40,965 nucleotides of DNA from Gemmatimonadota bacterium (GCA_003221045.1 QHUC01000113.1:1-40965), one strand, 5' to 3'; shown: positions 1 through 12,689, numbered from the stretch's first letter. Numbers and translations: made by a program. The notes: generated by a model not told the origin, from the letters alone.

Positions 1-764
1 AAGCCCGAGCTGGTGCACATCGCTTTGGTCACGAGGGCATTCACGACGGGGGTCATGAGCGCGATGACCACGCCATTTGTGTCGAGGTCGGTCACCGCCC
101 CGAACGCCGTCGAATCGAGGGGATAGAGACGTGTGTCGAACACCTGTTTGAGCGTATCGATGTCGGCCGAGTCGAGGCCGTTCGCGGGTGCCAGGGTGTC
201 GACATAGATGGCGACGTGGGCGCCCACCGCCCGCGCGCGCGCGCCGACGGTCTTGAACTGGCTGCAATTACTGAGCGTGGCGCATACGGTGAACGTCCGC
301 AGGCTTCCCAGGCTGGGCGGGCTGGCCAGCGGCGTCACCGCCGCGGCTCGCCCGGTCGTGGCCGCACCGAACGCGCGGGTGCGACCCAGGGCCCGCAGCA
401 TCCCGTCAAACCGGATCGCGGCGGCGCGCGGTGACGGCCCCTCCACGATCCGTTGGGCCAGCGGCATCGCAGCCGCCGTCACGGTCGCGGCCCGAAGCTG
501 AAAGGAGGAAGACCTACCGAAGGTACCCACCGCGGATTGCGGCACCAGCAGATACTCGGCCGAGTCCGCGGACCCATTCGCGGCGAGCGTGACGCATCCC
601 CCATCGGACGCAGGGTCGATCGACGCGTACGCGCCGATCGCCAGGGTGATCTGCGTCGCCTGGCCAGCGCGGCACGCCACACTCGGTGCGGCAGTTTCGC
701 TGCTGCACGCTGCCATTCCCATCAGCAACCACACCAGAAGGGAACCTTCTGCCGCTCGTCGCAT
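1..764 (-). CDS. Putative secreted lipoprotein; C-terminus lies beyond the left edge of the window (function unknown, possibly peptidase-like)
   Basis: My own minus-strand translation. ATG at 764..762 is preceded by GGAGGAG. N-terminus is MRRAAEGSLLVWLLMGMAACSSE (signal peptide plus lipobox-like MAAC). The frame stays open to position 1, which is why it is absent from the ORF track. It starts 17 nt downstream of the TonB-dependent receptor stop. Confidence 0.55.
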   Translation of the reverse strand, partial: MRRAAEGSLLVWLLMGMAACSSETAAPSVACRAGQATQITLAIGAYASIDPASDGGCVTLAANGSADSAEYLLVPQSAVGTFGRSSSFQLRAATVTAAAMPLAQRIVEGPSPRAAAIRFDGMLRALGRTRAFGAATTGRAAAVTPLASPPSLGSLRTFTVCATLSNCSQFKTVGARARAVGAHVAIYVDTLAPANGLDSADIDTLKQVFDTRLYPLDSTAFGAVTDLDTNGVVIALMTPVVNALVTKAMCTSSG

Positions 765-781
765 GTCCGCTTTCTCCTCCC

Positions 782-3127
782 TCAGGCTCCGAGGTTCACC
801 CGCAGCTGCACGCTGCGCGGTCGGCCCACGGACGCGCCGCTGAAGAACGCGCCCTTGAGCAGGTACTGCTTGTCGAAGACGTTCTCGACGTAGATCTGGG
901 GTCGAACGACCACGCCACCGAACGCGAAGGCGTACCTGGCGCTGCCGTTCAGGATAAAGCTCGGCGCCACCTTGATCGACTTGTTGAAGTCGAACAACCC
1001 CGTCCCGTAGGTCGAGTCGGGATCGGCGCCGTTCGTCAGGCCGCTCCCGTAGATGCCGGTCGCAGAGAGGTAGAAGCCGCGGGCCGAGTACACGACGCTC
1101 GCGGCGCCCGACAGCCGCTGGTCGTGATCGAGATCGAAGGTCCCCGAAGGTGGCTGGGCGGGAAAGAACCCGCCCGTGATCGCCCCGTATCCGTACGCGT
1201 GGTTCAGCGCAACGTTCATGTACCCCGACACAGGACCCTTGGGACGGATCTCGGCGACCGCCTCGATCCCGGTGATCCGCACCTGTTCGATGTTCACGGA
1301 TGTAACGATCGCCGATCCCGGCACGGTGTTGTCGTCGATGCCCGGGGAGCTCACCTTGTGGTAGGCCGAGAGCTTGGTGACGACTCCGAACGGGAAGCGA
1401 TGTACGAACCCCACCTCGTAGAAGTCGTCGCGCTCGGGAAGGGTCGGGGCCGCCGCAACCCCGCCCTGCGCATCGCTCGTGATGGCTCGCAGGTCCTCCA
1501 CGTTGGTCGGGAGAAAGAGCCGGCCGTAGTAGACCCAGAACGTGTTCGCCGGATCCGGGAAGAAGCTGAGTTTCACCCGTGGGCTTACCTGATTCTGGTT
1601 TCCCGCAAACGGGGCGTTGTGGTTGTCGAATCGCACGCCGGTGCGGAGCTCCCACTTGTCCGAGGGCGCGATCGCCGTGTGGGCGTAGACTCCCACGTCG
1701 CTCCCCTTCAGGTCGGAGTTCGAGGCGGGCCCGGGGCTCCCCCCGTTGGTGACCGTGGAGAAATCTTCGTGCCCGCCGGTGTACGACGCGAGCACGCCGG
1801 TCTTGAACTCGAGCCCGTGGTGGGGCTGGAGCGTGTAGTCAAGCTTCAGGCCGGCCGTATGGAAGTTCCGGTCTTCGCTCAGGATGTAGTGCGCCGTATC
1901 GGGGGAGAACACGAACGTCGCCGAGTCGGAGAGACCCGGCGTATAGTTCAGGCTGCCGTCGCGGAAGAATGCTCCGAGGAACAACTCGGACGACCGGCTT
2001 TCGGATCCGGTCTCCGAGTCGAAGCGGTGGCGCCAGCCGAGGTTGACGAATCCGTTCACGTCCTGCTGGTGGTCGTCGATGATCCCTTCGACCGAGTCGA
2101 ACGGGACGGCGAAATGCGTGCGCGAGCGATTCACATCGAGGTTCACCACGTCACGGTCGGACGGGATGTACTGCACCTTGGCGAACCCGAAGAGATCTGT
2201 ACCGTCGTTGTGAAAGTTCTCGACCGTCTGGGTCACGGTGTCGAATACCACTGGCTCCCGCCGCATGTCCGTCCCTTGCCGCGCTCCAGAAAAGAAGAAC
2301 CCGAACTTGCCGGCGTTCGTGCTCACGTTCAGCGCCTGCCCATTCGACGAAAACGAGCCGCCGTAGCCGGACGCGTCGAGGTGCAATCCACCCGACGGGA
2401 TGCGCGTAGTGACGTTGACGATGGCGGCGTTCTTGTTGCCGTACTCCGCGTCCCAGCCGCCCGTTTGGAAGTCGATCTGATTCACGACCTGCGGGTCGAA
2501 CAACTCGTTCAGGCTTCCGGAAATCCCCGCGGGGACCGGCACACCGTCTACGTAGTAGGTGTACTCGGCGTGCTGGCCGCGGATATGGACTTCTCCTGTC
2601 GGCGCCCGCGCCGCGCCCACGATCGATTGCTGCAGGATCTGGGACGTGGTGTTGGTGGGCGCTCCGTGATAGTCGTTCTGCTTGAAGACCTGGTCGCCCG
2701 TGCGCGTGTCCACGGCGAGCGGCACGGTCGACGTGACCTCGACCGCAGACAGGTTGATCGGCAGAGGGACGAGGCGAAAGTTCGTCAGGCTGAGACCCTC
2801 GTCGGCTGCGACGGAAACGTCGCGCGTTTCGGCGCGGTACCCCAGGTACCGAACCTCCACGCTGTACGCTCCGGCGGGCAGATTGTGGATCACAAAGCGG
2901 CCGAACGCGTCGGTGGTCGCGGTGGCGATCGTGTTGCCGTCGCGTACGATCCGCACCTGGCCGCCGGGCAACGGCGTGCCGGTCGCGCTGTCAGCCACCG
3001 AACCGCCCACGTCGCCATCGTCTCGCAAACCAGCGCCGACTGTGGTGGCTGAGACCGGGCGCGCGGCGAGGCCGCTGCCCGCGAGCCATACGACGACCGC
3101 TGCGTGATAGAATCTCTTCGAGCTCAT
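782..3127 (-). CDS. TonB-dependent outer-membrane receptor with N-terminal carboxypeptidase-regulatory-like domain
   Basis: 781-aa ORF. Signal peptide is MSSKRFYHAAVVVWLAGSGLAARPVSA. A CarboxypepD_reg-like stretch (GSVADSATGTPLPGGQVRIV...GRFVIHNLPAGAYSVEVRYLGY) is followed by plug-like and long beta-barrel sequence (YGRLFLPTNVEDL, ENVFDKQYLL). ATG at 3127. Confidence 0.9.
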   Translation of the reverse strand: MSSKRFYHAAVVVWLAGSGLAARPVSATTVGAGLRDDGDVGGSVADSATGTPLPGGQVRIVRDGNTIATATTDAFGRFVIHNLPAGAYSVEVRYLGYRAETRDVSVAADEGLSLTNFRLVPLPINLSAVEVTSTVPLAVDTRTGDQVFKQNDYHGAPTNTTSQILQQSIVGAARAPTGEVHIRGQHAEYTYYVDGVPVPAGISGSLNELFDPQVVNQIDFQTGGWDAEYGNKNAAIVNVTTRIPSGGLHLDASGYGGSFSSNGQALNVSTNAGKFGFFFSGARQGTDMRREPVVFDTVTQTVENFHNDGTDLFGFAKVQYIPSDRDVVNLDVNRSRTHFAVPFDSVEGIIDDHQQDVNGFVNLGWRHRFDSETGSESRSSELFLGAFFRDGSLNYTPGLSDSATFVFSPDTAHYILSEDRNFHTAGLKLDYTLQPHHGLEFKTGVLASYTGGHEDFSTVTNGGSPGPASNSDLKGSDVGVYAHTAIAPSDKWELRTGVRFDNHNAPFAGNQNQVSPRVKLSFFPDPANTFWVYYGRLFLPTNVEDLRAITSDAQGGVAAAPTLPERDDFYEVGFVHRFPFGVVTKLSAYHKVSSPGIDDNTVPGSAIVTSVNIEQVRITGIEAVAEIRPKGPVSGYMNVALNHAYGYGAITGGFFPAQPPSGTFDLDHDQRLSGAASVVYSARGFYLSATGIYGSGLTNGADPDSTYGTGLFDFNKSIKVAPSFILNGSARYAFAFGGVVVRPQIYVENVFDKQYLLKGAFFSGASVGRPRSVQLRVNLGA

Positions 3128-3212
3128 GCGCTCTCCCTGGACGTGCGTGAGTAGCAGTGACTCGGCGCGTCCCCGAGATGTCGGACGACGAGGCGAGTCG
3201 GTTCACGTGCGG

Positions 3213-3238
3213 GCGACGCGCGCGGTGCGCGGCGTCGC
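3213..3238 (-). other. GC-rich stem-loop abutting the stop codon of small protein A (no U-tract)
   Basis: Plus strand reads gcgacgcgcgcggtgcgcggcgtcgc. The arms GCGACGC(C)GCGC and GCGCGCGTCGC pair (about 11 bp, one bulge, 3-nt loop). No T/U run follows on the minus strand. Confidence 0.45.
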
Positions 3239-3591
3239 TAGGAGAGCGCGGGAGGTGCGCGGGGCTGCGGGTGAGGTCGGGATAGCCGGTAGGGCAGTCC
3301 TGCGAGAGCTATACGGCCCGGCAGCCGGTGGTCCGCGCCCGCCACGGGAAGCGTGACCGCCCGACCCACGGCGACGGGTGCGGTGAGGAAGTGGCAGAGG
3401 GCGCAGTCGGGAGCGTGAATGCGCACACAGCTGTTGGTCGTGTGGGACTCGATGTGCGCCACCGCGTGGGATTCCGCGGTGTCGAGACGGGCGTCCGCCC
3501 AGGCCGCGGCCCCCGGCAGCGTGAGCTGCAGGAGGGCCGTCGCGAGCCAGAGCGCCCGCAGCGCTGGGGGACGCTGGCCCATGCTCCTCAT
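3238..3591 (-). CDS. Small exported His/Cys-motif protein, paralog A (117 aa; putative periplasmic metal-binding protein)
   Basis: This is the internal ATG (M49) of track ORF 3238..3735. The ATG at 3591..3589 overlaps the TGA of the upstream permease gene (ATGA). Signal peptide is MRSMGQRPPALRALWLATALLQLTLPGAAAWA. The motif AHIESHTTNSCVRIHAPDCALCHF is shared with the ORF at 6807..7160. Confidence 0.6.
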   Translation of the reverse strand: MRSMGQRPPALRALWLATALLQLTLPGAAAWADARLDTAESHAVAHIESHTTNSCVRIHAPDCALCHFLTAPVAVGRAVTLPVAGADHRLPGRIALAGLPYRLSRPHPQPRAPPALS

Positions 3592-4421
3592 GCCGGCGCG
3601 CGCATCAGCTTTCGCAGGGCGACGGCGCCGACTAAGACGATTCCGTACATGCATACGATCAGCGGGCCGGTCGGAAGGTCCCCGGCGAGTGAGAGCCAGA
3701 GGCCAAGCACGGAGGCGAGCGCTCCCGAGCCCCACGAGATGTACGCCAGTCGCTTCATGTCACGCGTGAACATGAAGGCAATGACGGCCGGCACGACCAG
3801 GAAGCTGAATACCATGAGGACGCCCGCGACCGGCACGGCCAACGTGATCACGACGCCGAACGACAGATAGAACAGGAAGTCCCACCACTTGATCTTCCAA
3901 CCCAGGCGCTCGGCTTCCTCTGGATGAAAGGAGATGGTGAGGAAGCGATGGCGAAAGAAATAGTGGAACAACCCGAGCGCCACATAGGCCGCCGCGAGCT
4001 TCACGATGGTGGGCTTGAACGTGACCCACAAGATGCTTCCGGTGAGGGTTTTCTCGATCGCCTCCCCGCCGCCCGGCACCTTGTTGGCGACCAGCACGGC
4101 GCCCGCCGACGCGACCACGTAGACGATGCCGATGAAGGCTTCCTGGGGCACGCGCCGCCCCTCCTTGGGGGAGGTGCGCGTGAGCGCGAATAACAGGGCG
4201 CCGACCGCCGTGGCGAAGAGCGCGAAGATATACGCCCAGGTCGAGTCGGCCTCCACGTGAATCAGCAGCGCCGACAGGCCACCCAGCGCGGCCATCTGCG
4301 CCAGCGAGAGATCGACGAAGATCACCTCGCGGGCAATCACGTGCAGGCCGAGGTAGGACAGCATGGCCACGAGCACCATGCAGGCCACGAACGGTGGGAT
4401 CATCAACTGGAGACCGCTCAT
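3588..4421 (-). CDS. Metal (Zn/Mn-type) ABC transporter permease, ABC-3/ZnuB family
   Basis: 277-aa polytopic membrane protein. It is typical of ABC-3 family permeases (LSLAQMAALG, multiple TM helices). RBS AAGGAAAAGGTGAA lies before the ATG at 4421. Confidence 0.88.
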   Translation of the reverse strand: MSGLQLMIPPFVACMVLVAMLSYLGLHVIAREVIFVDLSLAQMAALGGLSALLIHVEADSTWAYIFALFATAVGALLFALTRTSPKEGRRVPQEAFIGIVYVVASAGAVLVANKVPGGGEAIEKTLTGSILWVTFKPTIVKLAAAYVALGLFHYFFRHRFLTISFHPEEAERLGWKIKWWDFLFYLSFGVVITLAVPVAGVLMVFSFLVVPAVIAFMFTRDMKRLAYISWGSGALASVLGLWLSLAGDLPTGPLIVCMYGIVLVGAVALRKLMRAPA

Positions 4422-4434
4422 TTCACCTTTTCCT

Positions 4435-5445
4435 TTAGTTGGCAGCGGTGCCGGCTGCCCGGAACGCCCGGTCGAGCTCTGTAATCCAGAGGTTCATGAG
4501 ATCGAAGTAGGTGTTGACGCCGGGTGCGCCGCCCGTGTTCGAAGGCACGATCACGGCCTTCGCAGCGGTCTTCTGCGCGACCTCGAGGACCTGATTGTGG
4601 TCGTAGTAGTTCGTCGACAGCAGCACCTGGATGTGCTGCTCGCGCATTTCGTTGATCACCTCAAGCACGTGTCCGGGAGTCGGAGGAATGCCGGGCTTGG
4701 GCTCGATATAGTCCACGCACGGTAGCCCGTACTCCCGCGAGAAGTAGTCCCATTCCTTGTGGTAGCACGCCACCGCCTTGCCGCGGAACGGCATCGCTTC
4801 CTTGAGCCAGCCGCCCAACCGGTCTATCAGGGGCGCGCCCTGGTACTGCTTGCTTTTCAAGAAATCGAACAGCTTGCCCTGGCGGTCCAGGTCGGCGAGC
4901 GTGGCCCCACCCAGGAGCTTCACGAGGCCGGCCCCGAACAGCGCCTGGTACATGCGGTCCTCGAAATCCTTTTCGCGCTCCGTGAAGTAGTCGCCGTTCT
5001 CAGGAGCAACGCGCTTCAGGCCCGTAAGAATGTTCCGGGCGATCTGCACCGCATTGAGCGGATCGGTCCAGATGTGCGGATTGCCGTACACGTGGATGTC
5101 ACCCTGGGCGCGCGAGAAGCTGGTCGGGACGTCGAGCAAATCGATGCCCGCATACGCGGCCACGTAACCGGGGCCGCCCTCGGTCACCTTCGGGTTGTTC
5201 GCTTTGTCGAGCAGGGCGGGGACCCATAGCTCGAGGTCGAGGCCCGTCGTGACGAAGACGTCCGCCTCGGACAGCATCGGGATGAAGCTCGGCTTGGGTT
5301 GCACGTAGTGCGGATTCTCGTCGCCGGTCGCGATCGAGGCATAGCTCGTGAGTGAGGTGACGACCTTCACCTTGTCCACCGCCCGGGTGGGGCGGACCGG
5401 TGCGGGCGTGTGAAGCGCGACGAGCAAAGCGATGGCTGGCAGCAT
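4435..5445 (-). CDS. Metal ABC transporter periplasmic substrate-binding protein (ZnuA/TroA family)
   Basis: 336 aa. N-terminal signal, then KVKVVTSLTSYASIATGDENPHYVQPKPS and later IHVYGNPHIWTDP, which are the characteristic His-containing motifs of ZnuA/TroA-type binding proteins. It starts 1 nt after the stop of the upstream porin-like gene. Confidence 0.85.
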   Translation of the reverse strand: MLPAIALLVALHTPAPVRPTRAVDKVKVVTSLTSYASIATGDENPHYVQPKPSFIPMLSEADVFVTTGLDLELWVPALLDKANNPKVTEGGPGYVAAYAGIDLLDVPTSFSRAQGDIHVYGNPHIWTDPLNAVQIARNILTGLKRVAPENGDYFTEREKDFEDRMYQALFGAGLVKLLGGATLADLDRQGKLFDFLKSKQYQGAPLIDRLGGWLKEAMPFRGKAVACYHKEWDYFSREYGLPCVDYIEPKPGIPPTPGHVLEVINEMREQHIQVLLSTNYYDHNQVLEVAQKTAAKAVIVPSNTGGAPGVNTYFDLMNLWITELDRAFRAAGTAAN

Positions 5446-5446
5446 G

Positions 5447-6709
5447 TCAATAGGTCTCGTGTTTGTGTGGTCCGATGGCCCAGACGGCCTGGAGGGCGAA
5501 GTCGCCGGTCGACGAGCGACCAGTGATCTTCGCCCACGTGTATTGCGCTCGAAGCTCGACCCACTCGCTTTCCCACAGGGTCAGCGACGGAATCACCTGC
5601 CGAATGATCAAAGCGGAATCGGGCCGCTCCACGTAGTCGTAGCGCAGGCCGGCGATCCAGCGTTGCCCGAGCTTGTAGGTGGTGCCGACGTAGTACCCGA
5701 GGTGAGTCCCGCCGGCCCCCGCGAATTCCTTTCGGAGCGCATACAGCTCACCTCGCAGCGTCCATTCGCGGTACAGCGCTTGCGCGGGCGGTCGCCAGGT
5801 GAGTCTGAAGTCGACACCTCCCACCTTGGTCCGGAGGCTCGAGTCGGGGTTCGTCCCGTACAGCGCCGTACCTCCGAGCTGCATGTACGTCGAGCGCGTC
5901 AGCTGCCAGAAGTTGAGCAGGTGCACCAGGTACGTCGGCCGCCCGCTGCTCCCGAACAACTCGGCGTCGCTTTCGCTACGGGTCACCTGCGCCGTCAACT
6001 CGTGCGTGCCGAGGCCGCCGAACGCGCGGTACAGCGAGATGCCCGTGCCGGCGAGCCCGTCGTCCCCCAGGTAGGTGCGCAAGGCGAGTGGGTACTCAGT
6101 TTCGGGGAGCGCGTGCAGATGCCAGCGATTCAGCTCACCGAACTGCTGGCGAAACTTCCCGATGTCGAACCGGATGTGCCCGGGCAGCCCGGTCCAGTAC
6201 GCATAACCTTCCTCGATGCTCACGTTTCCGTTCTCGAGGCTGACGAAGATCTTCGTACTGGAGTACGGATCGAGTGGTGATTGAAAGCCAACCTCGAACT
6301 CGCGAGGGTCGAAGTTGTCGTGTTGGACACCCGGGATGTGGGCGCCCGCCCGTACGTCACCCGTGGCGCTGATCTCGGGGTTGAGCTGAGGCTGGCTGCG
6401 CTCACGGCCGACGAACTTTGTGCGGCTGCTGGTATCGGCCTTCACACGCGTCGTGTCCGTGCCCGCGGCCGCGGCCGCCGCGGCGCGGAGCGCGGCGAGC
6501 GATGTGTCGGCCGCCGCCTCGGCGACGGGCGCGGGACGGCGAGCGATCTGCGCGCGCAGACTGTCGAGCCGCGCCTTCAGCGCGCGAACCTCCGCGGCGA
6601 GGGAATCTACCCTTCGCTGCTCCGCCGGCTGCTGCGCGAACGCACGGGCGGGCAGCACGAGCACGGCCGCGAAGGCAGCCGCGACGGCATACTGACGATG
6701 TCGATTCAT
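5447..6709 (-). CDS. Putative outer-membrane beta-barrel porin with N-terminal coiled coil
   Basis: Start taken at the internal ATG 6709 (MNRHRQYAVAAAFAAVLVLPARAFAQQ is a signal peptide). The upstream 89 codons of the track ORF are Arg/Pro-rich and overlap the gene at 6807..7160. A heptad-like segment LAAEVRALKARLDSLRAQIA is followed by alternating beta-strand-like sequence ending in an aromatic residue (..HKHETY). Confidence 0.6.
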   Translation of the reverse strand: MNRHRQYAVAAAFAAVLVLPARAFAQQPAEQRRVDSLAAEVRALKARLDSLRAQIARRPAPVAEAAADTSLAALRAAAAAAAGTDTTRVKADTSSRTKFVGRERSQPQLNPEISATGDVRAGAHIPGVQHDNFDPREFEVGFQSPLDPYSSTKIFVSLENGNVSIEEGYAYWTGLPGHIRFDIGKFRQQFGELNRWHLHALPETEYPLALRTYLGDDGLAGTGISLYRAFGGLGTHELTAQVTRSESDAELFGSSGRPTYLVHLLNFWQLTRSTYMQLGGTALYGTNPDSSLRTKVGGVDFRLTWRPPAQALYREWTLRGELYALRKEFAGAGGTHLGYYVGTTYKLGQRWIAGLRYDYVERPDSALIIRQVIPSLTLWESEWVELRAQYTWAKITGRSSTGDFALQAVWAIGPHKHETY

Positions 6710-6781
6710 CCTCGAGTGATCTCCCGTTCCCTTGTTGCGAGCGTGCGCCGCCGCAACTCGGAGGCGCGCGATTCCATCTCG

Positions 6782-6801
6782 GCGGCCGGCATGCCGGCCG
6801 C
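6782..6801. other. Perfect 20-bp palindrome (stem-loop) 5 nt downstream of the stop of small protein B
   Basis: gcggccggcatgccggccgc equals its own reverse complement (8-bp GC stem, CATG loop). No U-tract follows on the minus strand. Confidence 0.55.
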
Positions 6802-6806
6802 GTGAG

Positions 6807-7160
6807 CTAGAGAAGGGGCGGGGGTGGGGCTCGAGGGGGGGCGCAGCGGGCGTCGGGGCGGCGCGCCGGAATGGCATCGGGGTCCGCGCTCCGCCCTTCG
6901 ACGGAGGCCTGGCGCAGCGGTCCCATCTGCGTCGGGCGCGGCGCCGCCTGGGCGCCGGCCCACTGACACAGCGCACAGCGGAGCTCGTCGTGCAATGCCA
7001 GGCACGCCGACCCGTGCTGCGCTTCGATGTGCGACGGGGCGGTCACCCGCTCGGACGCGTGCGCCAGCGACACCGCCCCGCCCGCGAGCCCCTGGAGCAC
7101 CAGGAGCAGCATGGCGAGGTACCGGGTCCAACGGTTGCGCGTCGTCGTGAGTGCGATCAC
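6807..7160 (-). CDS. Small exported His/Cys-motif protein, paralog B (117 aa)
   Basis: The GTG at 7160..7158 overlaps the TGA of nfo (GTGA). Signal peptide is MIALTTTRNRWTRYLAMLLLVLQGLAGGAVSLAHA. The motif SHIEAQHGSACLALHDELRCALCQW is shared with 3238..3591. Both proteins are 117 codons and both end in a Pro-rich tail containing PRAPP. Confidence 0.6.
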   Translation of the reverse strand: MIALTTTRNRWTRYLAMLLLVLQGLAGGAVSLAHASERVTAPSHIEAQHGSACLALHDELRCALCQWAGAQAAPRPTQMGPLRQASVEGRSADPDAIPARRPDARCAPPRAPPPPLL

Positions 7161-7915
7161 GCCCTGCCTACGGTTTGGGCCGGACGACCGTTGTGCCGGC
7201 CGCGCGGCCTGGTGCCCCGCGCGTACGCGCGCAGTCGTCTGAGCATCCGCCGGTCGTGGCGGATCGGATCGTCGCCCTTCGGCGTCTCGATAATCTTAAT
7301 CACCGGCGTGAATCTCGGGTCACGCATGATGTCCCGGAACGGTCCGGGGCCGAGCGTGCCCTCGCCGATCCATTGGTGACGGTCCAGCCGGGACCCGGGG
7401 GCGCCCTTCGAGTCGTTGAGATGCAAGCACTTGAGGAGTGCGAGCCCCACCTCCTGGTCGAAGCGCTCCCACACCGCCTCCAGTCCGGCGACTACATCGT
7501 ACCCCACGGCGTGGAGATGAGCCGTGTCGAGGCAGAACGCCACCCGCTCCCGAAGGGGGGCAGGGAGGGCATCGCGTAGCGCCGCCAGCTCCTCGAAGGT
7601 GCTTCCCAACGCCGTTCCAGCACCCGCCGTGCCCTCGATGAGGAGTCCCACATTGCCGGGCACGGCGGCCAGACACTCCGCGTACCCGCGGGCGTTCCAC
7701 GCGAGCCCGGCGGCCCGGTCGTCGATGTAATTGCCGGGATGCGTCACGACCCAGGGGATCCCCAGTGCCCGGCAGCGCTCCAGCTCGCGGGTGAACGCTC
7801 GCGTACTCTTGTCGCGGAGCTCGGCGTCGGGAGACGCCAGGTTGTTCAGGTAGCTCTCATGTGACACCACGGCGCGGATACCGCTCGCCGCCAGCGCCGC
7901 TCGAAAGGCCGTCAC
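7157..7915 (-). CDS. nfo: Endonuclease IV (AP endonuclease family 2), apparently lacking about 45-50 N-terminal residues
   Basis: Motifs VSHESYLNNLASP, VTHPGN, LIEGTAG, CLDTAHLH, LHLNDSK...GSRLDRHQWIGEG and IIETP match the Nfo metal-ligand motifs. The only start is GTG 7915, which aligns near residue 50 of E. coli Nfo (sequence recalled from memory). Confidence 0.8.
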   Translation of the reverse strand: MTAFRAALAASGIRAVVSHESYLNNLASPDAELRDKSTRAFTRELERCRALGIPWVVTHPGNYIDDRAAGLAWNARGYAECLAAVPGNVGLLIEGTAGAGTALGSTFEELAALRDALPAPLRERVAFCLDTAHLHAVGYDVVAGLEAVWERFDQEVGLALLKCLHLNDSKGAPGSRLDRHQWIGEGTLGPGPFRDIMRDPRFTPVIKIIETPKGDDPIRHDRRMLRRLRAYARGTRPRGRHNGRPAQTVGRA

Positions 7916-7949
7916 CTCGTCGTCGCCGACGATCGGCTCGCCTCGCCCG

Positions 7950-8618
7950 TCACAGCCAGGGCTCCTCGCTGAAGCCGAGCCGGGAGATGAGTGGCACGAA
8001 ACGGACGCCTCCGGCCCGCCGCTCGGTCAGGCCACTGGCGCCCCGCTCGATGATGAACAGCTCCTGGGTGACGAGATCGCCGATCGGGATCACGAGGCGG
8101 CCGCCCGGCATGAGCTGCTCCGTGAGTGGGGGCGGCACGCCCGGCGCCGCGGCGGTCACGATGATACCTCGGAATGGCGCCCGCTCGGGCCAGCCGCTCG
8201 CGCCGTCCCCCAGTCGGGTCTCGATGGTCCGGAGCCCGAGCCGCCGGAACCGCTCTTCGGCTTCGACCAGGAGGTCCGGAAGTCGCTCTACGGTGAACAC
8301 CCGGGCGCCAAGGTGAGCGAGAATGGCGGTCTGATACCCCGAGCCGGTGCCGACCTCGAGGACCCGGTCGCCGCGCCGGGGGGTGAGGGCTTGCGTCATC
8401 AGCGCGACGATCAGCGGCTGCGAGATCGTCTGCCCGCTGCCGATCGGCAACGGGCCGTCCTCGTACGCTTCGGCGGCGAGGTGCGGGGGCAGAAACCACT
8501 CGCGCGGCACCCAGGCCATGGCGGCGAGCACACGTCGGTCGTGAACACCGCGATTCGCGAGCTGGCTCGCGACCATGCGGCGCCGCTGGCGGCGGGTCTC
8601 AGGTGCCGGAGCGCGCAC
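7950..8618 (-). CDS. pcm: Protein-L-isoaspartate O-methyltransferase
   Basis: 222 aa. Contains GQTISQPLIVALMTQAL, VLEVGTGSGYQTAILA (SAM-binding motif), GGRLVIPIG and VRFVPL. Confidence 0.9.
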   Translation of the reverse strand: MRAPAPETRRQRRRMVASQLANRGVHDRRVLAAMAWVPREWFLPPHLAAEAYEDGPLPIGSGQTISQPLIVALMTQALTPRRGDRVLEVGTGSGYQTAILAHLGARVFTVERLPDLLVEAEERFRRLGLRTIETRLGDGASGWPERAPFRGIIVTAAAPGVPPPLTEQLMPGGRLVIPIGDLVTQELFIIERGASGLTERRAGGVRFVPLISRLGFSEEPWL

Positions 8619-8649
8619 TCGCCACCCGTCCCGGTTGCCGTCCCATAGG

Positions 8650-9989
8650 GTGAACTATAGCTTGACACCCTCCACCGCGCGGCCAGGCCTGTTGCCGGAA
8701 CACCCCCAGCATCGCATCCTCCTCGTCGGCGATCCCGCCGCCCGCCCGGACGGGTTGGAGCGGTTCCTGGTGCGCGGCGGTTTCCAGGTCACGGAGGCCG
8801 CGAACCCGCCGTCCGGCCCGGAGCGAGCCGAGCCCCATCCCCCCGATCTCGTGGTGGTTTCGATCGGGGCGAAGGAGGCGGGCTTCGTGGAGGCGATCCG
8901 TGAGCTCGCCACGGCGGGCCGGTTTGCCGGGGCACCGGTGATCGCGTTGCTCGCGGACGGTGGTGCCGCCGCGGTGGCGGAGGCGCTCGAGGCCGGCGCC
9001 AGCGATGCGATCGTGACCCCGGTCCACTTCGGCGAGCTGCGGGCGCGCATCGAGGCCGATCTCCGCCGGCGCGCCGACCAGCAAGAGGCGCGGGACGCGC
9101 TGCGCACCCGCGACCTCCTGTTCGACATCTTCCAGGAGGTGTCGGCGGCTCTGCGGGCGGACGAGATCTTCCAGACGCTCGTGCGTCGCGTGGGGCACGC
9201 GTTCGGACTGACCCACTGCTCCTTCGTGCTCACGGCCCCCGGCGAGGACAAGGGGCGCGTGGTCGCTGGCGCCAGCAGCGGATCGAAGTCAACGTTCAGG
9301 CCGCCGTCGCCCTGCCGGTGTTCGTCCAGGGCCGCGCCGCCGGGGTCTTCTTCCTCCGGACGGTGCAGGGCGACCCGGAGCTCCGCTCGCAGGACGTCGC
9401 CTTCGCGAACACCATCGCCCAGGCCGCGGCCCGCGTGCTCGAGAACGAGGAGCGCAGGGCGGCGATCTACCGGCGCCAGATCAACGCGGGCGTGACCGAC
9501 GTCCTCACCGGCTGCGCCAGCCTCGACGCCCTCGACCGGCGCCTGCGCGACGAGTTTGAGCGCGCCCGGCGGTACTCGCTGCGGTTCGCCCTCGTGGTGA
9601 TCGACATTGACCAGCTGCGGGATGTGAACGAACGACTCGGCCAGCCGGCCGGTGACCGCGTGCTGGCGGAGATCGGCGCCCTGATGCAGCGCGAGATTCG
9701 CGCTCCCGACTTCGTGGCGCGGTACGGAGGCGATGAGTTCGCGCTGGTGCTGCCGGAGACGGACGCGCAGGGAGCGCGGCGGTTTGTGGAACGCCTCCGC
9801 CAGCTCGTGGCGCGCCACACATTTCCCGACCTCGGTCGCAGCCAGGCGCCGAGTTTGTCCGCTGGCGTGGTGGCGTTCCCCCACGCCGAGGTGCTTCGAC
9901 CCGAAGACCTCTTTACACAGGTGGAGGCGGCGCTCGAGCGAGCCAAGAAGGGCGAGCCGACCCGGATCGGCGTCGCGGAGGGGTCCTAG
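8650..9989 (+). pseudogene. Pseudo-receiver / GAF / GGDEF diguanylate cyclase, interrupted by a frameshift (and probably a deletion) inside the GAF domain
   Basis: Track ORF 8575..9495 carries a REC-like domain (ILLVGD, DLVVVSIG, IVTPV) and the first half of a GAF domain. Track ORF 9318..9989, in another frame, carries the GAF end plus GGDEF (RAPDFVARYGGDEF, with an RxxD I-site). The frame change falls near 9265-9300. The start is uncertain: GTG 8650 or TTG 8662. Confidence 0.8.
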
Positions 9990-11095
9990 TCCAGCGTCTT
10001 TCGAAACCTGCGCACCGACGCCACGATCAGGACCACCGCGAACGCCGCGAGGATCAGCACCTCCTGCCACAGCGCTTCCAGCCCGACCCCCTTCAGCAGA
10101 ATGCCACGCACGACTTTCAGGAAGTAGGTCAGAGGCATCAGCAGTCCCAACCACTGCGCGATCTCCGGCATCGCCTGGCGAGGGAACATGAAGCCCGACA
10201 GGAGGATGTTGGGCAGCATGAAGCCGAAGCTAGCCTGTATGGCTTGTTGTTGGGTGCGCACCAGCGTCGAGACGAGGAGGCCGAACGCCAGGCTGGCAAT
10301 GATAAAGATAAGGCTCACGCCGTAGAGGAGCAGGATGTTCCCGGTGATCGGGACGTCGAACACGAACCGGCCGAGGATTAGGACGGCGGTCATCTGGAGC
10401 AGGCCCACGCCGACATAGGGTGTGATCTTCCCCAGCATCAGCTCGGTCTTGGTGATCGGTGTGACGATGAGCTGCTCGAGCGTGCCACGTTCCCGTTCCC
10501 GAACGATGGCCATGGCCGTGATGAGGACCAAGGTCATCGTGAGGATGACCCCGACGAGTCCGGGGACGATGTAGTTGGGGCTTCGGAGCCCCGGGTTGTA
10601 GCGGGGCCGGACGCGCGCCTCGATCGGGATGCTGCGGTCCGCGGCCCGGGACAGGATCGAGAGATTGCGCGCCTGGGCGACGCCGGCGGCGGCGTTCAGC
10701 GCCGCCTGCGAGGAGAGCGGGTCCGCGGCGTCCACGATGACCTGGACGGTGGCCGTCGTGCCACGAGCCAGGTCTCGCGGGTAGTCGTAGGGGACGATGA
10801 TGCCGGCCTGCGCGTCGCCCCGCGCGATGGCGGCATCCAGCTCCGGCCGCCCGTCGACGTGCGCGATCACGCGAAAGTTGCCCGTGTTTTGGAACGCGGC
10901 GATCAGGTCGCGGCTGGTGGGCGTTCGGGACTGGTCGAGCACCACCGTCGGCAGGTTGCGGACGTCGGTCTGGATCGCATAGCCGAAGACGAGCAGCTGG
11001 ATCACCGGGATGCCGACCATCATCGCGAACGTCAGGCGATCCCGGCGCATCTGGATGAACTCTTTGCGAAACATCGGCCAAAAACGCGACATCAT
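9986..11095 (-). CDS. ABC-2 type transporter permease (YbhS/YbhR-like)
   Basis: 369 aa. N-terminal TM, a large periplasmic loop, then 5 TM helices, as in ABC-2 family permeases. ATGA overlap with the upstream ATPase gene. Confidence 0.85.
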   Translation of the reverse strand: MMSRFWPMFRKEFIQMRRDRLTFAMMVGIPVIQLLVFGYAIQTDVRNLPTVVLDQSRTPTSRDLIAAFQNTGNFRVIAHVDGRPELDAAIARGDAQAGIIVPYDYPRDLARGTTATVQVIVDAADPLSSQAALNAAAGVAQARNLSILSRAADRSIPIEARVRPRYNPGLRSPNYIVPGLVGVILTMTLVLITAMAIVRERERGTLEQLIVTPITKTELMLGKITPYVGVGLLQMTAVLILGRFVFDVPITGNILLLYGVSLIFIIASLAFGLLVSTLVRTQQQAIQASFGFMLPNILLSGFMFPRQAMPEIAQWLGLLMPLTYFLKVVRGILLKGVGLEALWQEVLILAAFAVVLIVASVRRFRKTLD

Positions 11096-11826
11096 TGTTC
11101 GTCACGCTGCTGCAATACCACGAATGCGTCCTCCAGCGTGCGCCCGCCGACCTGAGCCGCGACCTCGTCGGGCGTTCCCAGCGCGATGAGATGTCCGCGG
11201 CTCATCATTCCCAGCCGGCCGCACTGTGCCGCTTCGTCCATATAGTGTGTCGTCACCAGCACTGTGGTCCCCGATGCGGCGAGATCGTGGATCGTGTGCC
11301 AAAACCGGCGCCGCGCGGCCGGGTCCACACCCGCGGTCGGCTCGTCGAGGAAGAGCAGGCCCGGCCGATGAACCAGCGCGCACGCCAGCCCGAGCCGTTG
11401 TTTCCAGCCACCGGAGAGTTGCGCCGCGAGCTGGCCGAGCCTGTCTCCCAGGCTGAGAAACGCGACCACCTCGCCGACGCGCGTCCGCATCATGTCCCCG
11501 CGGAGACCGTAAATTCCGGCGTAGAACGTGAGATTCTCCGCCACGGTCAGATCCTCGTACGCGCCCACCCGCTGCGCCATGTAACCGATACGCTGCTTGA
11601 CCTGCTCGGGCGCGACCGTGACGTCGATGCCAGTGACCAGGGCCGACCCGCTGGATGGCTCGAGGAGCCCGCACAACATGCGGATCGTGGTGGTCTTGCC
11701 CGAGCCGTTCGGGCCGAGCAGGCCGAATACCTCCCCCCGCTCGATGCGCAGCGTCAGCGCATCCACGGCCGTGAGGGCGCCGAACCGGCGCGTCAGCTCA
11801 CGGGTTTCGACGGCCGCGTCCATCAC
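11092..11826 (-). CDS. ABC transporter ATP-binding protein
   Basis: Walker A GPNGSGKTT, signature LSGGWKQRL, Walker B LLFLDEPTAGVD, H-loop TTHYMDEA. Confidence 0.92.
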   Translation of the reverse strand: MMDAAVETRELTRRFGALTAVDALTLRIERGEVFGLLGPNGSGKTTTIRMLCGLLEPSSGSALVTGIDVTVAPEQVKQRIGYMAQRVGAYEDLTVAENLTFYAGIYGLRGDMMRTRVGEVVAFLSLGDRLGQLAAQLSGGWKQRLGLACALVHRPGLLFLDEPTAGVDPAARRRFWHTIHDLAASGTTVLVTTHYMDEAAQCGRLGMMSRGHLIALGTPDEVAAQVGGRTLEDAFVVLQQRDEQ

Positions 11827-12689
11827 CGGGGCAGGGGGATCTCGACGGTCGCCGGCATCCCCGCCTTGACGCGGCCGCCCGCGTCACCGTCGTCGAGCTC
11901 CACCTTGATGCCGAACACGAGGTCGGCCCGTTCCCGCTCGGTGAGCGCCGCGCGCGGCGTGAATTCGGCGCGTGGGGAGATCTCCACAATCCGTCCCGCG
12001 AACGCGTCTTGGACGCCATCCAGGCGCACGGTCGCCGCTCCGCCGACCTTGACGTGCGCCACGTCGCGGTCGCCGACGTACGCGCGGATCCACGGGCGCC
12101 GCACGAGGCCCAGCGCCACGACCGGCGTGCCGGCCGCGAGCGCCTCCCCCGGATCCGCGTAGCGCGTCAGGACGATTCCGTCTTCCGGCGCGAGAACCGT
12201 GAGCTGATCGCGAATGGCGACGGCCGCCGCGAACGCCGCGTTGGCCGCGGCCGATTCGCTGGGGGCGGCCCGCATGGAGGCCAGCCGGGCGGCGGCCGCC
12301 GCGGCGGACGCCCGCAGCCCGTCGAATTGCTGCTCGGACACAATGCCCCGCGACCGGAGAGGCTCGGCGCGGGCGAGGTCGTTCGCCGCCCGCGCGCTGT
12401 CCGCCTCCGACGCCTTCACGTCATTGACACGCAGTGCTGCGGCGCGTGCCTGCGCGCGCCGCTCGGCTATCAGCGCGCCCACTCCCGGTTGCTCCAGCAC
12501 GGCAATCGTATCCCCGCGGTGCACGGTGTCTCCCTCGTCCTTAAGCAGCCTCGCGAGCCGCCCGGCGGCCAGCGGAGCGAGCTCGAGCTCCCGGATCTCC
12601 ACGGTGCCGCTGACCTGCAGTCGATCGTTCGTTCCACCGCAGGCGGCGAGCAGCGCGGTGAGGACGAGTGCGCGGGCGGGATGCGTCAC
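11823..12689 (-). CDS. HlyD-family periplasmic adaptor (membrane fusion) lipoprotein
   Basis: Start taken at GTG 12689, which overlaps the TetR stop (GTGA). N-terminus VTHPARALVLTALLAACGG has a lipobox. An Ala-rich coiled-coil hairpin is followed by a C-terminal beta domain (ATVRLDG...GRIVEISPRAEFTP), typical of YbhG/HlyD_D23 proteins. Confidence 0.8.
   Translation of the reverse strand: MTHPARALVLTALLAACGGTNDRLQVSGTVEIRELELAPLAAGRLARLLKDEGDTVHRGDTIAVLEQPGVGALIAERRAQARAAALRVNDVKASEADSARAANDLARAEPLRSRGIVSEQQFDGLRASAAAAAARLASMRAAPSESAAANAAFAAAVAIRDQLTVLAPEDGIVLTRYADPGEALAAGTPVVALGLVRRPWIRAYVGDRDVAHVKVGGAATVRLDGVQDAFAGRIVEISPRAEFTPRAALTERERADLVFGIKVELDDGDAGGRVKAGMPATVEIPLPR

Follow-up and report, generated by a model that had tools for sequence, protein, structure and literature searches.

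Two small open reading frames (ORFs) in DNA from a Gemmatimonadota bacterium (GCA_003221045.1 QHUC01000113.1:1-40965; 40,965 nt, referred to here in its entirety as the window, from a genome of 68-70% GC) very likely encode metal-sensing leader peptides of the type that ends in an Arg-Ala-Pro-Pro (RAPP) motif. Both lie on the minus strand, ORF A at 3238..3591 and ORF B at 6807..7160. We consider it probable that A and B are leader ORFs like CruR and CutF of the DUF2946 superfamily, and that they regulate in cis the uptake genes that follow them. Support for this interpretation comes from conservation of the two proteins, from the fixed spacing between a putative metal-binding motif and RAPP, from RNA features at the ends of the ORFs, and from the genes with which each ORF is associated.

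ORFs A and B Are Paralogous Genes

Both ORFs comprise 117 codons followed by a TAG stop codon (3240..3238 in A and 6809..6807 in B), and both overlap the preceding gene by 4 nt, as had been recorded in an initial annotation of this DNA. ORF A begins with ATG within ATGA (3591..3588), which contains the TGA stop codon of an ABC-3 permease gene, and ORF B begins with GTG within GTGA (7160..7157), which contains the TGA stop codon of an endonuclease IV (nfo)-like gene. The two products share the His/Cys motif quoted in the initial annotation and are related in sequence, with 34% identity over 58 residues by BLASTP (E = 1e-4) and an hhalign probability of 96.4% (E = 1.4e-9 over 105 columns) when their profiles are compared.

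Homologues at E <= 0.01 number 295 for A and 239 for B, all of them unnamed 'hypothetical' proteins from Gemmatimonadales/Gemmatimonadota metagenome bins and nearly all 114-118 residues in length. Nucleotide diversity is greatest at codon position 3, being 0.47 vs 0.29-0.32 at the other positions for A and 0.45 vs 0.32-0.33 for B, and each of the invariant amino-acid columns in A and B uses more than one codon. The codon-position statistics show selection on the protein and confirm that A and B are real genes. The initial annotation had argued from the shared motif that these are not chance ORFs; this view holds, and the homologues in related genomes that carry the conserved motif run to hundreds.

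A Putative Metal-Binding Motif and RAPP Are Held at a Fixed Spacing

Conservation within the proteins was assessed in 34 species-representative genome loci plus the window, with A scored in 35 loci and B in 18 intact loci, and in a wider family of 123 cluster representatives having <50% identity to one another, 84 of which could be scored for spacing. A putative metal-binding motif occupies minus-strand positions 3391..3456 in A (H46-I-E48-S-H50 … C55-x-R-x-H59 … D62-C63-A-L-C66-H67) and 6966..7031 in B (H44-I-E46 … H49 … C53 … H57-D … C62-A-L-C65). The motif reads H46-x-E48-S-H50-x4-C55-x-R-x-H59-x2-D-C63-x2-C66-H67 for the A family and H44-x-E46-x2-H49-x3-C53-x3-H57-D-x2-R-C62-x2-C65 for the B family; common to both is a CxxC extended to [H]xE…Cx3Hx3Cx2C. 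The CxxC itself (C63-A-L-C66 in A, C62-A-L-C65 in B) is invariant in alignments A1, A2 and A3. Residues E48, C55, H59 and C63 each occur in no fewer than 118 of the 123 representatives, H46 is present in 94, and C66 in 115, with His at this last position in the other 8. Invariant residues are H46, E48, S49, H50, C55, R57, H59, D62, C63, C66, H67, H107, P108, R111, A112, P113 and P114 in A, and H44, E46, C53, H57, D58, R61, C62, C65, R110, P112 and P113 in B.

Both tails contain PRAPP, as the initial annotation had noted, with 3 or 4 residues beyond it. The RAPP motif, a putative arrest site, is found on the minus strand at 3250..3261 in A (R111-A-P-P114, followed by three codons, ALS, and TAG) and at 6822..6833 in B (R110-A-P-P113, followed by four codons, PPLL, and TAG). 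The number of residues after RAPP is 3 in 35/35 A loci and 3-4 in 18/18 B loci, and the 123 representatives show no or almost no variation at R111, P113 and P114. CxxC and RAPP are separated by 44 residues in the two proteins of the window, as they are in 34 of the 35 A loci (43 in the other) and in 18/18 intact B loci; among the 84 scorable representatives the spacing is 42-45, with a sharp mode at 44. The approximately 40 residues between the motif and RAPP show little sequence conservation. Because the sequence varies while the length stays fixed, the segment from CxxC to RAPP behaves as a ruler and not as a fold. A search of the window for further RAPP-ending ORFs yielded only A and B as credible candidates.

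An A-type subgroup (loci L026-L031 and L034) has DCAxHRF in place of DCAxCHF, the second Cys of CxxC being replaced by His. The 44-residue register and RAPP are kept in this subgroup, the stop codon (TGA) and hairpin sequence differ, and the A unit is separate from the ZnuA/ZnuB unit.

At the N-terminus of each protein a basic stretch is followed by a hydrophobic segment, which ends in AWA in A (residues 30-32) and in AHA in B (residues 33-35), giving putative export signals at residues ~10-32 (…AAAWA) and ~13-35 (…LAHA), respectively. A hydrophobic 15-mer is located N-terminal to the motif in 74 of the 84 scorable representatives. The export-signal region (residues 10-35 of A, window 3564..3487; residues 13-37 of B, window 7124..7050) is unusually conserved for a signal peptide. 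Its hydrophobic core contains a Gln, Q22 in A and Q23 in B, that does not vary within either family and hardly varies among the 123 representatives. This conservation hints at a role beyond export, such as contact with the translocon or a partner, or use as an uncleaved anchor. An AlphaFold2 (AF2) model of A, with a mean predicted local distance difference test score (pLDDT) of 80, contains the signal helix (residues 9-40) and one 7-residue helix, the rest being coil, and a Foldseek search of the PDB with this model gave no structural match.

The A/B Family and DUF2946

PF11162 (DUF2946) is the sole Pfam family that recurs among the homologues of A and B, its alignment extending from the metal motif as far as the C-terminus. 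It is thus the nearest family, as the initial annotation had suspected, though its matches to both window proteins are sub-threshold. The profile has a length of 117 and a gathering cut-off of 23.7 bits; A matches at 10.2 bits (E 1.3; residues 41-114 on profile positions 42-117), below this cut-off, and B gives no match at E <= 5. Among A homologues, 21 of the 24 scanned gave weak matches, the best at E 0.027; for B the figures are 10 of 25 and E 4.3e-4. Among the 123 representatives 34 match at E <= 0.01 and 6 at E <= 8e-5, roughly the gathering level. By these profile scores the A/B family straddles the Pfam DUF2946 boundary, and it is filed as a divergent sister branch whose members are not DUF2946 members by the Pfam criterion. 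Searches of Pfam and NCBIfam with the two window proteins gave no family above threshold, the sub-threshold matches being DUF2946, PSCyt3 and CzcI only. The match of A to CzcI (NCBIfam NF045614) is weak and local (15.8 bits, E 0.017) and falls short of the cut-off of 100 bits; B does not match CzcI.

The initial annotation had found no characterized family that fits, a claim that is overtaken by the characterization of CruR in 2022 and of CutF in 2023. CruR (Bp2923) of Bordetella pertussis is the prototype of DUF2946 (Roy et al., mBio 2022, PMC9426467). Copper sensed through the CxxC of CruR relieves a RAPP-dependent translation arrest, upon which Rho terminates transcription before the transporter gene (PMC9426467). 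The arrest by CruR has been shown in vitro, with two Pro codons in the P and A sites (PMC12992588), and the structural basis of RAPP arrest is known (PMC10951233). An export signal, in the form of a signal peptide or an N-in/C-out transmembrane segment, is found in >95% of the DUF2946 family (PMC9426467). According to a survey of Gram-negative phyla, upstream ORFs with signal peptides and RAPP or RGPP are over-represented ahead of genes for TonB-dependent receptors (PMC12992588). In CutF of Rhodobacter capsulatus, copper promotes the stall, and a stem-loop overlying the cutO ribosome-binding site is thereby melted (Öztürk et al., mBio 2023, PMC9973294; bioRxiv 10.1101/2025.02.05.636593).

RNA Features at the Ends of ORFs A and B

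A GC hairpin directly after each ORF had been pointed out in the initial annotation, and is found for both. The hairpin of A (3238..3212, minus strand) starts at the last base of the stop codon and has a minimum free energy of -19.6 kcal/mol (z -2.9 vs shuffles). The hairpin of B (GCGGCCGGCAUGCCGGCCGC; 6801..6782, minus strand) has a minimum free energy of -20.5 kcal/mol (z -3.4 vs shuffles) and lacks a U-tract. Offset from the stop codon is 0 in 27 of 35 A loci and <=4 in all of them, and is 0-6 nt in 18/18 B loci. Hairpin sequence varies, with 35 distinct sequences in the 35 A loci and 17 in the 18 B loci. In comparison with random 40-nt windows of the same loci, hairpin stability is at a median percentile of 16% for A and 5% for B. 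The conserved position of the hairpin weighs more than its energy.

An intrinsic-terminator scan found no hairpin with a U-tract at the A or B site, and an Rfam search of 1..12000 (E <= 1) returned nothing. Neither hairpin sequence recurs in the window apart from one chance-level match with 3 mismatches, and we reject the hairpins as copies of a repeated element on this account.

Both ORFs are C-rich and G-poor over their final ~70 nt, with a C/G ratio of 2.1-2.2 vs a median of 1.0 and a 99th percentile of ~2.0-2.1 for random windows. This C-rich end resembles the C>G 'bubble' that carries the Rho-loading (rut) site of cruR. If the first RAPP Pro codon of A occupies the P site, the ribosome's leading edge (~+15) falls at the stop codon and the hairpin base is at +19, from which it follows that the hairpin would lie just beyond a RAPP-stalled ribosome, whereas a terminating ribosome would unwind it. 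The main stem of B is 5-8 nt further downstream than that of A.

The spacer between A and the receptor gene (3128..3237, minus strand; 110 nt) consists of hairpin 1, CCCGCACGUGAAC, a variable hairpin 2, UCACGCACGUCC, and the Shine-Dalgarno sequence GGGAGAG, and that between B and the porin-like gene (6710..6806, minus strand; 97 nt) of hairpin 1, a variable hairpin 2, and a conserved Shine-Dalgarno region, GAACGGGAGA. Spacers of other loci are 78-118 nt. Hairpin 1 is located 70-100 nt upstream of the next Shine-Dalgarno sequence. When ribosome-covered nucleotides were masked (14 A and 13 B spacers), predicted Shine-Dalgarno accessibility showed no consistent change, medians being ~0.4 throughout for B and 0.25-0.49 for A. 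Unmasking of a ribosome-binding site in the manner of SecM or CutF is disfavoured by these predictions and by the distance of the hairpin.

Two motifs are conserved in the A spacer, CCCGCACGUGAAC (3213..3201) right after hairpin 1 and UCACGCACGUCC, or (C)UCAC(G/U)CACGUC, (3150..3139) before the Shine-Dalgarno sequence. Their ACGUGA and UCACGU elements are able to pair, enclosing the variable hairpin 2. CCCGCACGUGAAC also fits a pause-like geometry, a hairpin followed by G(-10)…U(-1)G(+1). The pair of motifs may represent a DNA-binding site (CACGTG palindrome), a site of pausing, or a structure in the RNA.

Each Putative Leader Travels with the Gene Directly Downstream

On the minus strand of the window the gene order is nfo-like, B, porin-like, ZnuA-like, ABC-3 permease, A, TonB-dependent receptor and lipoprotein, in agreement with the order given from B onwards in the initial annotation. 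The common order across loci is nfo → B → porin-like → ZnuA → ZnuB → A → TonB-dependent receptor. ORF A precedes a TonB-dependent receptor gene in all loci, even that of a different receptor in L031, and B and more distant relatives precede the porin-like gene, followed by ZnuA(-ZnuC)-ZnuB. An nfo gene is found directly upstream of B in 17/17 loci covering that region. The synteny with the receptor and with porin/ZnuA/ZnuB, which extends over the 34 loci and the window, upholds the proposed ties of the two ORFs to metal uptake.

There are exceptions to this order. In L026 and L031, opposite strands carry the A→receptor unit and the unit of nfo→B→porin→ZnuA→ZnuB; in L031, A follows a divergent malic-enzyme gene and heads its own unit. 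The Znu genes of L029 and L030 are on the strand opposite A, and no B was detected on these contigs, which end inside ZnuA or the porin-like gene. Loci L012 and L032 have nfo→A→receptor without B, nfo being directly upstream of A. The distant relatives in L035 and L038 precede a gene of 413-448 aa that has no Pfam match, followed by ZnuA, an ABC ATPase and ABC-3; in L038 the relative is the first same-strand gene before the cluster, and in L035 the contig begins 102 nt upstream of the leader. These exceptions indicate that the leader travels with the gene directly downstream, as expected of a cis-regulator.

A natural deletion variant is present in L008 (8741..9583). The porin/ZnuA/ZnuB block is absent there, and a truncated or frameshifted B that has lost RAPP stands next to an intact A, with the receptor gene after it.

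Proposed Mechanism and Alternatives

From the properties of RAPP peptides and CruR we infer that the ribosome arrests at RAPP during synthesis and export of A or B. At arrest, the [H]xE…Cx3Hx3Cx2C motif would be 44-47 residues away from the peptidyl-transferase centre, a distance that would put it at the translocon or just beyond the exit tunnel, and metal occupancy of the motif would set the duration of the stall. The stalled ribosome would cover the C-rich, G-poor stretch ending at the stop codon, with the conserved hairpin directly downstream. If the analogy with CruR applies, the stall would shield the Rho-loading region in the metal-free state and transcription would continue into the uptake genes, whereas with metal bound the ribosome would be released, Rho would terminate transcription in the ~100-nt spacer, and the uptake genes would be off. 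Repression by metal is to be expected since the downstream genes serve uptake, and the CruR scheme delivers such repression. The hairpin may serve to pause RNA polymerase, to cap the upstream transcript at its 3' end once terminated, or both, a role that would make sense of the mid-operon position after nfo and znuB. By this mechanism B would gate the porin-like protein and ZnuA/ZnuB, and A would gate the TonB-dependent receptor and lipoprotein. A sensor was among the roles offered in the initial annotation, and that option is close to the one favoured here.

The components of this mechanism carry different weight. We hold the CruR-type direction of control with Rho, taken by analogy, as a tentative suggestion. 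For zinc as the ligand, the case is about evenly balanced. It is favoured by the ZnuA-type binding protein with its putative His3 site, by the Cys3His motif, and by the upstream nfo gene, whose product, endonuclease IV, is a Zn-dependent enzyme. On the most far-reaching reading, A and B would be the first zinc-responsive nascent-chain sensors: a Gemmatimonadota-wide RAPP branch with a Cys3His (+His/Glu) site, operating as two internal attenuators in one transcription unit, one gating the porin and Znu ABC importer and the other the TonB-dependent receptor, both downstream of the constitutively needed gene for a Zn enzyme (nfo). We put forward this reading with some reserve, its chances being somewhat short of even.

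Several points weigh against the proposed mechanism. Hairpin stability is only moderately unusual for this GC content, and RNAalifold on a MAFFT alignment of 35 post-stop regions gave no consensus structure, indels in the loops misaligning the arms; the evidence for the hairpins comes from per-sequence folding with random-window controls, which is weaker than consensus folding, and covariation is descriptive and not statistical. Both window proteins score below the DUF2946 gathering level (A at 10.2 vs 23.7 bits, B with no match). ORFs A and B overlap upstream stop codons in the window, and CruR genes head operons. Zinc is suggested by genomic context, and Cu(I), Co or Ni could also occupy a Cys3His site. 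It is by analogy that a role for Rho and the direction of control are suggested, and CutF, of the same superfamily, works in the opposite way. The strongly conserved export signal and N-terminal part of the mature protein, together with the pLDDT of 80, leave room for a function of the finished protein.

The alternative that survives best, which we nevertheless regard as unlikely, keeps A and B in the same class of sensor and operates by the logic of CutF. Metal, sensed in the periplasm during co-translational export, would prolong the stall, and the post-stop hairpin would be the effector, forming while the ribosome is held at RAPP and melting only when the ribosome reaches the stop codon; the state of the hairpin would then control read-through into, or translation of, the downstream genes. 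CutF, which belongs to the DUF2946 family, stalls in response to Cu and has an mRNA stem-loop as its effector, such logic would likewise yield repression of uptake genes by metal, and the hairpin base of A, at +19 when counted from the P-site codon's first base, lies just outside the RAPP-arrested but inside the terminating ribosome. This geometry is not strictly common to both leaders, however, given the displaced main stem of B. The remoteness of the hairpin from the next ribosome-binding site, the lack of a consistent effect of ribosome masking on predicted Shine-Dalgarno accessibility, and the lack of a U-tract after the hairpin also speak against it.

A second alternative, quite improbable in our estimation, is that A and B are stable exported or membrane-anchored metal-binding chaperones or accessory subunits that act between the receptor or porin and ZnuA, with a RAPP tail that is incidental or merely slows translation; a function of this sort is compatible with a regulatory role. 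It finds support in the dense invariant His/Cys/Glu motif, in the unusually conserved hydrophobic N-terminal segment with its invariant Gln, in the pLDDT of the A model, and in the co-location of the genes with those of transport components. Yet the residues between CxxC and RAPP are poorly conserved while their length is fixed, as in a ruler and not a fold, and the A model lacks secondary structure beyond the signal helix and the 7-residue helix and has no match in the PDB. The invariant RAPP, with 3-4 residues after it, is an arrest module of proven activity, each copy always directly precedes a long structured spacer, beyond which comes a gene that has its own ribosome-binding site, and CruR was not detectable or producible as a stable protein (PMC9426467). 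The periplasmic chaperone or metallophore role entertained in the initial annotation is therefore considered unlikely, the Pro-rich tail being the RAPP arrest motif, and a segment conserved in length but not in sequence between CxxC and RAPP being the mark of regulatory leader peptides of the CruR type (PMC9426467; PMC12992588).

Finally, the notion that the ORFs are non-functional, either chance frames in GC-rich DNA or relics, with hairpins that are ordinary terminators or repeats, can be set aside: GC-rich DNA does give numerous spurious ORFs on both strands and the hairpin energies are not extreme for the base composition, but the hundreds of homologues, the excess of third-position variation and the synonymous codons at invariant residues exclude it, and conserved length and synteny and hairpins that are unique in the window and without U-tracts are further evidence to the contrary.

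Comparison with Known Leader Peptides

The architecture that we assign to A and B as metal-sensing leader peptides is that of CruR, which has an export signal, a CxxC, and RAPP three residues before the end (3-4 in A and B). The spacing from CxxC to RAPP is 45 ± 1–2 in CruR and 44 in A and B. A GC-rich intergenic spacer follows in each case, of 162 nt for CruR and 97-110 nt for A and B, and a gene for a TonB-dependent transporter lies downstream of CruR as it does of A, the regulated genes being for metal uptake in both systems. As in A and B, C is abundant and G scarce in the second half of the CruR ORF. There are also differences. CruR needs CxxC alone, whereas in A and B the motif is extended to [H]xE…Cx3Hx3Cx2C. 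The context of CruR is one of copper genes (PepSY_TM, PCuAC and ScoI), and that of A and B one of ZnuA/ZnuB and a porin-like gene. CruR heads its operon, whereas A and B are two copies within one gene string, each overlapping an upstream stop codon. The conserved hairpin at the stop codon is a feature of A and B in comparison with CruR, and homologues of CruR are mostly from Proteobacteria, those of A and B from Gemmatimonadota.

CutF-like proteins have been defined by a rule of <150 aa, a signal peptide, PP within the last 15 residues, and a same-strand gene <1,000 nt downstream (PMC9973294). Both A and B have all of these properties, the export signal being a predicted one. Like CutF, A and B would be nascent exported metal sensors with a stem-loop downstream of the ORF, the sensor role being the inferred part of this likeness. 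CutF activates a detoxification gene, cutO, in response to Cu, whereas the genes downstream of A and B are for uptake. The CutF stem-loop covers the cutO ribosome-binding site, whereas masking of this type is not predicted for the more distant hairpins of A and B. The CutF-like survey notes clusters that have His-containing motifs and non-copper contexts (PMC9973294; bioRxiv 10.1101/2025.02.05.636593), and its main text makes no mention of a ZnuA/ZnuB or porin neighbourhood.

The arrest peptides ApdA, ApdP, ApcA and SecM (PMC7897499, PMC10951233, PMC10987492, PMC12992588) resemble A and B in having a C-terminal R-A-P-P, an N-terminal localization signal, and control in cis. They differ in that they monitor Sec/YidC activity, are encoded ahead of genes for secretion, and lack a metal-binding motif, such as A and B carry. 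As monitors of Sec/YidC, A and B were rejected on the grounds of their downstream genes, which encode the porin-like protein, ZnuA/ZnuB and the TonB-dependent receptor, and are not secA, secDF or yidC. ORFs of the CzcI/CopL type (NF045614; cited in PMC9973294) are, like A and B, small exported Cys/His proteins encoded upstream of metal-homeostasis genes, but they precede genes for efflux, oxidases or detoxification whereas A and B precede genes for uptake.

The novelty claimed in the initial annotation does not stand in its strong form, the class of element being a known one; the extended motif and the ZnuA/ZnuB context do stand, as undescribed in the papers searched. Already known are exported, metal-sensing RAPP arrest peptides by which a TonB-dependent receptor is controlled. 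New with respect to the papers searched is a Gemmatimonadota family missed by Pfam, with a Cx3Hx3Cx2C + HxE motif and a natural Cys-to-His variant. New in the same sense are the connection with a porin and an importer of the Znu type, which favours zinc over copper, and the presence of two paralogous leaders in one gene string, each overlapping its upstream gene. No description of a zinc- or Znu-linked CruR/CutF-like family was found in the papers searched.

Genes Adjoining ORFs A and B

All of the adjoining genes are on the minus strand. The nfo-like gene (7157..7915; TIGR00587, 183.7 bits) has the stop codon that overlaps the start of B. Its product is only 252 aa and aligns from TIGR00587 position 64, thus lacking ~50 N-terminal residues of canonical Nfo, and this short form is also present in other loci.

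The porin-like outer-membrane protein (5447..6709; 420 aa) has a signal peptide, a coiled coil, and ~16 beta-strands in its AF2 model. The protein has no Pfam match and no PDB sequence match, and PDB sequence searches were uninformative for it and for the receptor. The model is of low confidence (pLDDT 48.7), and its top Foldseek matches are all 16-strand porins, including DcaP, OprP, OmpT and Omp32. The label 'porin' is reasonable and softly supported by this predicted structure. The protein belongs to a large family (2,063 matches) without a Pfam model or name, and its predicted N-terminal coiled coil and 16-strand barrel resemble DcaP-type porins.

The ZnuA-like protein (4435..5445; PF01297, E 8e-36) is a distant member of the cluster A-I substrate-binding proteins. 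When it is aligned to PsaA, the third ligand position is His and not Glu, giving a putative His/His/His zinc-type triad if, as we presume, the known sites of ZnuA and PsaA are a guide to its ligands. Between its residues 36 and 37 a stretch of 14 residues (AIAREIVGDRGxVx) is missing, an in-frame gap in the N-terminal lobe as judged against the orthologues of L006, L009 and L024, to which identity is 85-90% outside the gap; this deletion could mean an impaired protein or an assembly artefact. The ABC-3 permease (3588..4421; PF00950, E 7e-30) is ZnuB/AztB-like. In the clade of the window no ABC ATPase gene occurs between or beside the ZnuA and ABC-3 permease genes (3588..5445), and the order in more distant loci is ZnuA, ABC_tran, ABC-3 (L035, 2717..3490; L038, 7531..8310). 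The ATPase for the ABC importer of the window must be encoded elsewhere or shared.

The TonB-dependent receptor gene (782..3127; PF00593, E 7e-20) encodes a Plug and an N-terminal CarboxypepD_reg domain (PF13620, E 7.5e-17). The lipoprotein gene (MRRAAEGSLLVWLLMGMAAC…; 1..764) is downstream of the receptor gene and extends past the left end of the window.

Implications

To our knowledge, metal-sensing arrest peptides have so far been shown experimentally for copper only, in Proteobacteria. The locus described here places the hardware of CruR and CutF in an uncultured soil phylum, with a distinct Cys3His-type motif and in connection with a porin, a TonB-dependent receptor and an importer of the Znu type. 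If the reading of A and B as zinc sensors is true, metal sensing by arrest peptides would extend from copper to zinc, with zinc as a new sensory specificity for nascent-chain sensors and as a rare case of post-transcriptional zinc control; according to the authors of the CruR study, no riboswitch equivalent of such a post-transcriptional zinc switch has been described (PMC9426467). The pair of paralogues constitutes a natural experiment, the same arrest module and spacing being combined with different sensor residues and different target genes. Hundreds of Gemmatimonadales 'hypothetical proteins', which escape the present Pfam DUF2946 model, could receive a new annotation as regulatory leader peptides.

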